Below, piece after piece: positions 33,914 to 34,237 of a DNA stretch of 64,000 nt (position 1 is the stretch's first letter; every line of letters starts with the position of its first letter). Source of the stretch: Escherichia coli (lineage in GTDB: Bacteria > Pseudomonadota > Gammaproteobacteria > Enterobacterales > Enterobacteriaceae); the NCBI RefSeq assembly GCF_050920415.1, contig NZ_CP169309.1. One strand, given 5' to 3'. The translations under genes and the position numbers were made by a program. The notes below the pieces were generated by a model that saw only the letters and a program-made list of their open reading frames with translations, was not told where the DNA came from and did no database searches.

Positions 33914-33954
33914 CATGACCTCTATATATTTATCTCCGGCGGTCATACCCGTCG

Positions 33955-34075
33955 TCTTTCAGGCCGCAGCGGCGTTAGCTTCACGCCCTCACCCCAGTCA
34001 CTTACTTATGTAAGCTCCTGGGGATTCTGGCGCTTGCTACCTTGCTGCACCCAGAAATCCATAGGGTATGTGAAG
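33955..34075. repeat. ERIC / IRU intergenic repeat (inverse orientation to the 12.6 kb copy)
   Basis: cacgccctcaccccagtcacttacttatgtaagctcctggggattc is the reverse complement of the 12598-12640 core. Confidence 0.75.
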
Positions 34076-34204
34076 TAATACCCTAACCACCACCGGGTCG
34101 TTCTATCCGTCGGTATTTTACAAAATTGTTAACAATTTTTAAACAACAAACGGCAACCGATTTGTCTATTCGCTAATAACCTCAATACATTCATGAGATT
34201 ACCA

Positions 34205-34230
34205 GAAAAAAGCCGGCCGTTGGGCCGGCT
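34205..34230 (-). terminator. Rho-independent terminator downstream of aceF
   Basis: On minus strand: agccggcc-caac-ggccggct followed by tttttt. Confidence 0.8.
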
Positions 34231-34237
34231 CTTTTAC

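Follow-up and report, generated by a model that had tools for sequence, protein, structure and literature searches.

Partial termination after aceF and an independent, ArcA-repressed lpd promoter in the Escherichia coli aceF-lpd spacer, with a strain-variable ERIC element in the lpd leader

Introduction

Dihydrolipoyl dehydrogenase (E3), the product of lpd, is common to the pyruvate dehydrogenase, 2-oxoglutarate dehydrogenase, and glycine cleavage complexes. Operons in which a partial terminator is combined with a separately regulated internal promoter are known, the sdhCDAB-sucABCD read-through arrangement being an example, and there, likewise, the outcome is a differential stoichiometry. The pdhR-aceEF-lpd operon resembles such systems in this respect but differs in that its downstream gene encodes a subunit used by three complexes. 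The terminator after aceF and the independent promoter of lpd are already known from publications that go back to the 1980s and 1990s, and together they form a standard example of how a shared subunit is uncoupled from an operon. Three units of transcription are documented, namely the entire operon, aceEF, and lpd. PMC2759082 describes an ArcA-regulated promoter at a distance of 195 nt from the ATG of lpd, for which it cites Spencer and Guest (1985), Quail (1994), and Cunningham (1998), works that PMC3798270 also cites; the title of Cunningham et al., as cited there, refers to co-regulation with 2-oxoglutarate dehydrogenase.

The second type of described system that bears on this locus is the ERIC (or IRU) element, which PMC3184786 presents as a MITE of about 127 bp found in Enterobacteriaceae (Sharples and Lloyd 1990; Hulton et al. 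1991). The copy between aceF and lpd shares with the known elements an exact core, an imperfect palindrome, a transcribed intergenic site, multiple copies in each genome, and a strain-dependent occurrence. It differs from them in its position in a 5' leader, where a conserved hairpin of older origin carries it in the apical loop; the effects of ERIC on mRNA stability in Yersinia, unlike any of the lpd leader copy, were studied downstream of genes (PMC3184786, a review).

Results

The aceF-lpd spacer is identical to that of K-12

The window analyzed here is a stretch of 64,000 nucleotides from E. coli (RefSeq assembly GCF_050920415.1, contig NZ_CP169309.1). It carries aceF (E2p of pyruvate dehydrogenase; 34238 to 36130) and lpd (E3, 474 amino acids, starting MSTEIKTQVVVLGAGPAGY; 32489 to 33913) on the minus strand, as placed by the open reading frame list, the translations, and the annotation that RefSeq gives for the identical locus in K-12. 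The translation of aceF ends with LSDIRRLVM and the TAA stop codon at 34238 to 34240, and lpd begins with the ATG at 33913, which is the RefSeq start (K-12 127912). A Shine-Dalgarno sequence, AGAGG (33919 to 33923, minus strand), is read 5 nt before this ATG; in the spacer alignment, the Shine-Dalgarno region AGAGGTCATGATG is invariant across 24 Enterobacteriaceae.

The spacer measures 324 bp (33914 to 34237, minus strand) and is 100% identical to positions 127588 to 127911 of E. coli K-12 MG1655, and 371 bp around it are likewise identical. The locus matches the K-12 pdhR-aceEF-lpd operon in its terminator, ArcA operator, start site, and order of genes, whereas three nearby positions, all of them coding, differ from MG1655 over 901 bp, which makes the window strain an E. 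coli other than MG1655. Transcript data from K-12 were carried over to the window strain, which is not K-12 itself, by way of the identical spacer (window position = 33913 - [x - 127912], where x is the K-12 position). For wider comparison, 120 gammaproteobacterial loci were gathered from a one-genome-per-species collection by a scan for the N terminus of Lpd; in nearly all of them, aceF lies immediately upstream of lpd.

A full-length match to the Rfam tp2 sRNA (102.8 bits) is located in the pdhR-aceE spacer (38811 to 38924, plus strand), on the strand opposite to the operon. An E-value scan of 32000 to 40500 against Rfam returned two weak hits near the aceF-lpd spacer that we rejected: OrzO-P at 34206 to 34269 (31.9 bits against a gathering score of 60), a chance or terminator look-alike, and CssrA at 33898 to 33998 (26.1 bits against a gathering score of 93), a chance or ERIC look-alike. 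An RNase III cleavage site in the aceF-lpd spacer was also rejected; the reported site is that of the pdhR-aceE spacer. The genes of the aceF-lpd locus find no mention in PMC10667835.

A conserved intrinsic terminator follows aceF

The preliminary description of this DNA had placed a strong minus-strand terminator directly after aceF, and sequence, fold, and conservation agree on an intrinsic terminator there (34203 to 34235, minus strand), with a published 3' terminus in one of two public data sets. Its hairpin, AGCCGGCC-CAAC-GGCCGGCT (34230 to 34211), begins 8 nt past the aceF TAA and has a stem of 8 bp, with 7 GC pairs, and a 4-nt loop, CAAC; an A-U extension and a six-T tract (34211 to 34206) follow, and then CTGG, so that hairpin and U-tract together occupy the interval 8 to 35 nt after the stop codon. 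The consensus scanner reported the hairpin on the plus strand only, and the T-run on the minus strand was recognized by direct reading of the sequence. The 51-nt terminator RNA folds with -24.6 kcal/mol, compared with -10.5 ± 2.3 kcal/mol for shuffled sequences (z = -6.16), and none of 200 shuffles was as good. The lpd ATG at 33913 lies 291 nt past the terminator end, in line with the distance of about 290 bp given beforehand.

The terminator is found in all 24 aligned Enterobacteriaceae, and in most of the 120 loci the aceF stop is followed, after a few bases at most, by a hairpin and T-run, with stem sequences that differ: GCCGGCC in Enterobacterales, GGGCGGGCC in Aeromonas, GGCTGCTCA in Shewanella, and ACGCCTCTC in Pasteurellaceae, each accompanied by a T-run. 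Judged by these alignments, the terminator is conserved across Gammaproteobacteria in structure but not in sequence.

Published RNA 3' ends add to this picture. RNAtag-seq/term-seq data place a 3' terminus at K-12 127617 to 127629, corresponding to window positions 34208 to 34196 in the aceF U-tract; this highly significant end is classed there as an alternative primary terminus internal to a transcription unit (PMC10687069). A terminus at the U-tract combined with the documented whole-operon transcripts argues that termination after aceF is partial, as had been proposed, with a presumed fraction of read-through. At 34203 to 34211 the public 3'-end sets disagree: the strong terminus of the TRS tables (PMC10687069) stands against a curated Term-seq list from three conditions, none of which shows an end at the aceF terminator (PMC7815308). 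The terminated species may therefore be scarce or unstable in those conditions and would not be prominent everywhere.

A second hairpin, HP2 (CUGGUAAUCUC...GAGGUUAUUAG; 34173 to 34205, minus strand), directly adjoins the terminator and has no U-tract. It appears in the RNAalifold consensus of 24 genera-level sequences and is formed in all 24 Enterobacteriaceae. The share of paired cells is 95.1% (slid controls, 30 to 49%), and both partners are replaced in three of the pairs. Hafnia, Serratia, and Edwardsiella form another strong hairpin where HP2 sits.

The lpd promoter is mapped within the spacer and covered by ArcA

The main lpd promoter (34115 to 34143, minus strand) consists of a -35 element TTTAAA (34143 to 34138) and a -10 element TAAAAT (34120 to 34115) separated by 17 bp; with 9 of 12 consensus positions matched, these hexamers predict a start at 34108. 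Two overlapping matches were found in the consensus scan, compared with 1.4 ± 1.2 in shuffled sequences, and the hexamer match alone is thus not beyond chance; the case for the promoter rests on published start-site mapping together with conservation. SMRT-Cappable-seq, in which 5'-triphosphate ends are selected and whole molecules are sequenced, recorded full-length lpd-only (b0116) transcripts from 127716 to 129397 (121 reads) and from 127717 to 129397 (40 reads) (PMC6131387 supplement). These main starts correspond to 34109 and 34108, respectively, and lie 195 to 196 nt upstream of the ATG, with the -10 element ending 7 nt upstream of them. The classical distance agrees, since 33913 + 195 = 34108. 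Across 24 Enterobacteriaceae spacers, the block CCGTTTGTTGTTT(A/C)AAAATTGTTAACAATTTTGTAAAATA is near-invariant between genera, whereas its flanks are variable, and related versions of the promoter block (TTAACAATTCTGTAAACT) can be recognized in Pantoea, Serratia, and Budvicia. Direct RNA-seq coverage around K-12 127845 rises from 174 upstream to 330 downstream (PMC7815308), which fits extra transcription entering lpd.

A minor upstream start at 34189 (K-12 127636, minus strand) is given for b0116 in the same supplement; it is weak and has no paired 3' end (PMC6131387). An extended -10-like motif, TGgTAATCT (34204 to 34196), is situated 7 nt upstream of it; the motif coincides with the 5' arm of HP2 and overlaps the terminator tail, and CTG[G/A]TAATCT is conserved among the 24 Enterobacteriaceae. 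The minor start itself falls in the HP2 loop.

The ArcA-P operator comprises three TGTTA-like direct repeats, TTGTTTAAAAATTGTTAACAATTTTGTAAAATA (34114 to 34146, minus strand), that overlap the -35 element, the spacer, and the -10 element. In the ArcA ChIP-seq supplement (PMC3798270), the peak is labelled lpdA, a 21-bit box is located at K-12 127682, and the direct repeats are given at 127682, 127693, and 127705 within a site spanning 127679 to 127711 (-38 to -6). Where ArcA covers the lpd -35 and -10 elements, sigma-70 occupancy is lost (PMC3798270), and the ArcA response is 6.1-fold for lpdA versus 3.2-fold for pdhR-aceEF-lpd (PMC3798270 supplement). The repeats are visible in the sequence, and the operator is near-invariant in the 24 Enterobacteriaceae. 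A perfect 18-bp palindrome, AAAATTGTTAACAATTTT (34122 to 34139), fills the promoter spacer within this direct-repeat site; because a binder of direct repeats needs no palindrome, another dimeric protein may bind there.

These data can be set against the idea that lpd has no promoter of its own, that it is expressed by read-through from aceEF only, and that the lpd-only RNAs are processing products. Whole-operon transcripts do exist, and the spacer, strongly structured as RNA, has mapped 3' ends that testify to processing, which speaks for this idea. However, a capture restricted to 5'-triphosphate ends finds the starts at 127716/7 (PMC6131387); ArcA sits exactly over the -35 and -10 elements, where sigma-70 occupancy is lost, and lpdA has a fold change of its own (PMC3798270); and the promoter block is conserved between genera. 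We consider it very improbable that lpd lacks a promoter of its own. The independent lpd promoter of the preliminary description is instead borne out by the 5'-triphosphate starts (PMC6131387), by the classical mapping as cited in PMC2759082, and by the ArcA site (PMC3798270). The preliminary description called for a transcription start between 33914 and 34200, and this interval contains both the main starts at 34109/34108 and the minor one at 34189 (PMC6131387 supplement).

An ERIC element makes up most of the lpd leader

The 5' untranslated leader of lpd (195 nt; 33914 to 34108, minus strand) is dominated by one long imperfect hairpin (34096 to 33936). The segment from 34108 to 33890 folds with -85.7 kcal/mol, compared with -60.1 ± 4.2 kcal/mol for shuffled sequences (z = -6.1), and leaves AGAGG (33923 to 33919) unpaired. 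Within this hairpin lies an ERIC element (about 33942 to 34079, minus strand), identified by its exact core, by alignment to the second copy in the window, and by its inverted-repeat arms (33944 to 33970 with 34044 to 34070, and 33992 to 34005 with 34010 to 34023). The core, CCCCAGGAGCTTACATAAGTAAGTGACTGGGG (34023 to 33992), has no mismatch over 32 nt, where no match is expected by chance, and we take it to correspond to the ERIC1R and ERIC2 primer sequences. Aligned over the full element, the two window copies give an extent of about 138 bp. The second ERIC, the only other copy in the window, has an identical core (12603 to 12634, plus strand) and is placed between converging open reading frames (11700 to 12551, plus strand, and 12772 to 13680, minus strand).

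The element had been described as lying between the terminator and lpd, which is correct and can be refined: the lpd start at 34108 is 29 nt upstream of the ERIC edge at 34079, and the element, being downstream of the start, is part of the lpd leader and not of the promoter, nor does it separate the terminator from the promoter. Outward promoters have been noted, as a general statement, on some miniature repeat elements (PMC3184786), and one might ask whether ERIC supplies the lpd promoter or is required for it. The position of the start outside the element speaks against this, as does the promoter block, which is intact in the 1,992 E. coli genomes without ERIC at this site and in all other Enterobacteriaceae examined; we give such a role practically no credence.

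RNA 3' ends coincide with ERIC stems

Two further groups of published 3' ends fall in the leader (minus strand). The end at K-12 127845 (window 33980) is supported by few reads, shows no Rho dependence, and carries an intrinsic terminator score of 6.2 (PMC7815308); mapped onto the fold, it lies 3 nt past the inner ERIC stem. The TRS tables list ends at K-12 127893 to 127896 (PMC10687069), that is, at 33932 to 33929, just before the lpd ribosome-binding site and 4 to 7 nt past the outer ERIC stem. Both groups fit a trimming of transcripts back to stable stems.

On this basis, the aceF hairpin could be read mainly as a stabilizer of 3' ends or a processing stop, which most polymerases would pass, an exonuclease then trimming the RNA to the available stems (the terminator hairpin, HP2, and ERIC). 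Such a reading would account for a curated Term-seq list that has a peak at the inner ERIC stem yet none at the U-tract (PMC7815308), and for ends past the outer ERIC stem at a site that has no U-tract (PMC10687069). It agrees less well with a GC stem and six-U tract of canonical form, with the highly significant terminus within the U-tract in the other data set (PMC10687069), and with the conservation across distant taxa of hairpin and T-run together rather than of the hairpin alone. We therefore regard it as unlikely that stabilization is the main function of the aceF hairpin. The two roles are not exclusive, and a stabilizing role is possible as an addition to termination, which it would not replace.

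The ERIC element varies among E. coli strains and recurs in Serratia

ERIC is present in the aceF-lpd spacer of 3,432 of 5,426 complete E. coli genomes (63%), K-12, BL21, and O104:H4 among them, and is lacking in 1,992 (37%), for example O157:H7. The 551-bp query gave a median of 5 matches per E. coli genome, those away from the lpd locus hitting the ERIC part (e.g., H15). The ERIC-less spacer has 207 bp, with 31 bp (positions 461 to 491 of L002) where the ERIC-bearing allele has 148 bp; at the ends, where a TA target duplication would be expected, the two alleles differ by replacement and not by simple insertion. Spacers of other genera look like the ERIC-less form, and in them CCGGTGG...CCGCCGG is the base of a small leader hairpin. 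Folded alone, the ERIC-less leader hairpin is not significantly stable (z = -1.1), and the case for its conservation therefore comes from the alignment.

In E. albertii, the representative genome carries the ERIC form, identical at 321 of 324 positions. An ERIC occupies the apical loop of this leader hairpin in Serratia grimesii (L091) and S. oryzae (L069) too, with unchanged orientation and flanked by both halves of the old hairpin; the S. oryzae copy bears an additional insert. These comparisons suggest that the loop of the lpd leader hairpin is a recurrent or an ancient site of ERIC insertion.

Orbaceae are an exception; their aceF-lpd spacer (L009, L048, L061, L080, L089, L097, L102, and L104; Gilliamella, Zophobihabitans, and a further isolate) is just 11 to 16 bp long, with no hairpin or terminator and no room for a promoter. 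In these gut symbionts, lpd appears from the spacer length to be fully coupled to aceEF.

Discussion

We conclude with high confidence that the aceF-lpd spacer works as already described, by way of a partial aceF terminator and an independent lpd promoter repressed by ArcA. In this scheme, polymerase coming from pdhR or aceE would reach the intrinsic terminator just past aceF, where some transcripts would stop and yield aceEF mRNA and others, in a presumed proportion, would read through into lpd. About 90 bp beyond the terminator, a sigma-70 promoter starts the lpd-only mRNA at 34108/34109, and phosphorylated ArcA, bound to its direct repeats across the -35 and -10 elements, represses it in the absence of oxygen. 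Read-through would thereby provide E3 together with E1p and E2p, and the separate promoter would provide E3 for the 2-oxoglutarate dehydrogenase and glycine cleavage complexes. The supply of E3 to other 2-oxoacid dehydrogenase complexes, which the preliminary description had put forward, agrees with published data. The leader of the lpd-only mRNA consists mostly of ERIC, which extends an older conserved hairpin, leaves the ribosome-binding site free, and has at most a putative effect on lpd expression.

That the correct architecture can be recovered from sequence alone gives the present analysis a value that lies mainly in calibration. What remains of interest is that ERIC is dimorphic and reappears in Serratia, together with the RNA 3' ends at its stems and HP2. 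The 63%/37% split among E. coli genomes, the use of the same hairpin loop in Escherichia and Serratia, and the 3' ends at the stem bases lead us to consider, tentatively, that ERIC is a strain-variable posttranscriptional module, one that would trap read-through aceEF or short leader RNAs or alter the stability of lpd mRNA and so shift the ratio of E3 to E1 and E2 between lineages. We hold this to be rather improbable; HP2 could be part of the same control. If ERIC or HP2 does alter lpd expression, this would be relevant to natural variation in central metabolism and to the effects of miniature repeats on mRNA.
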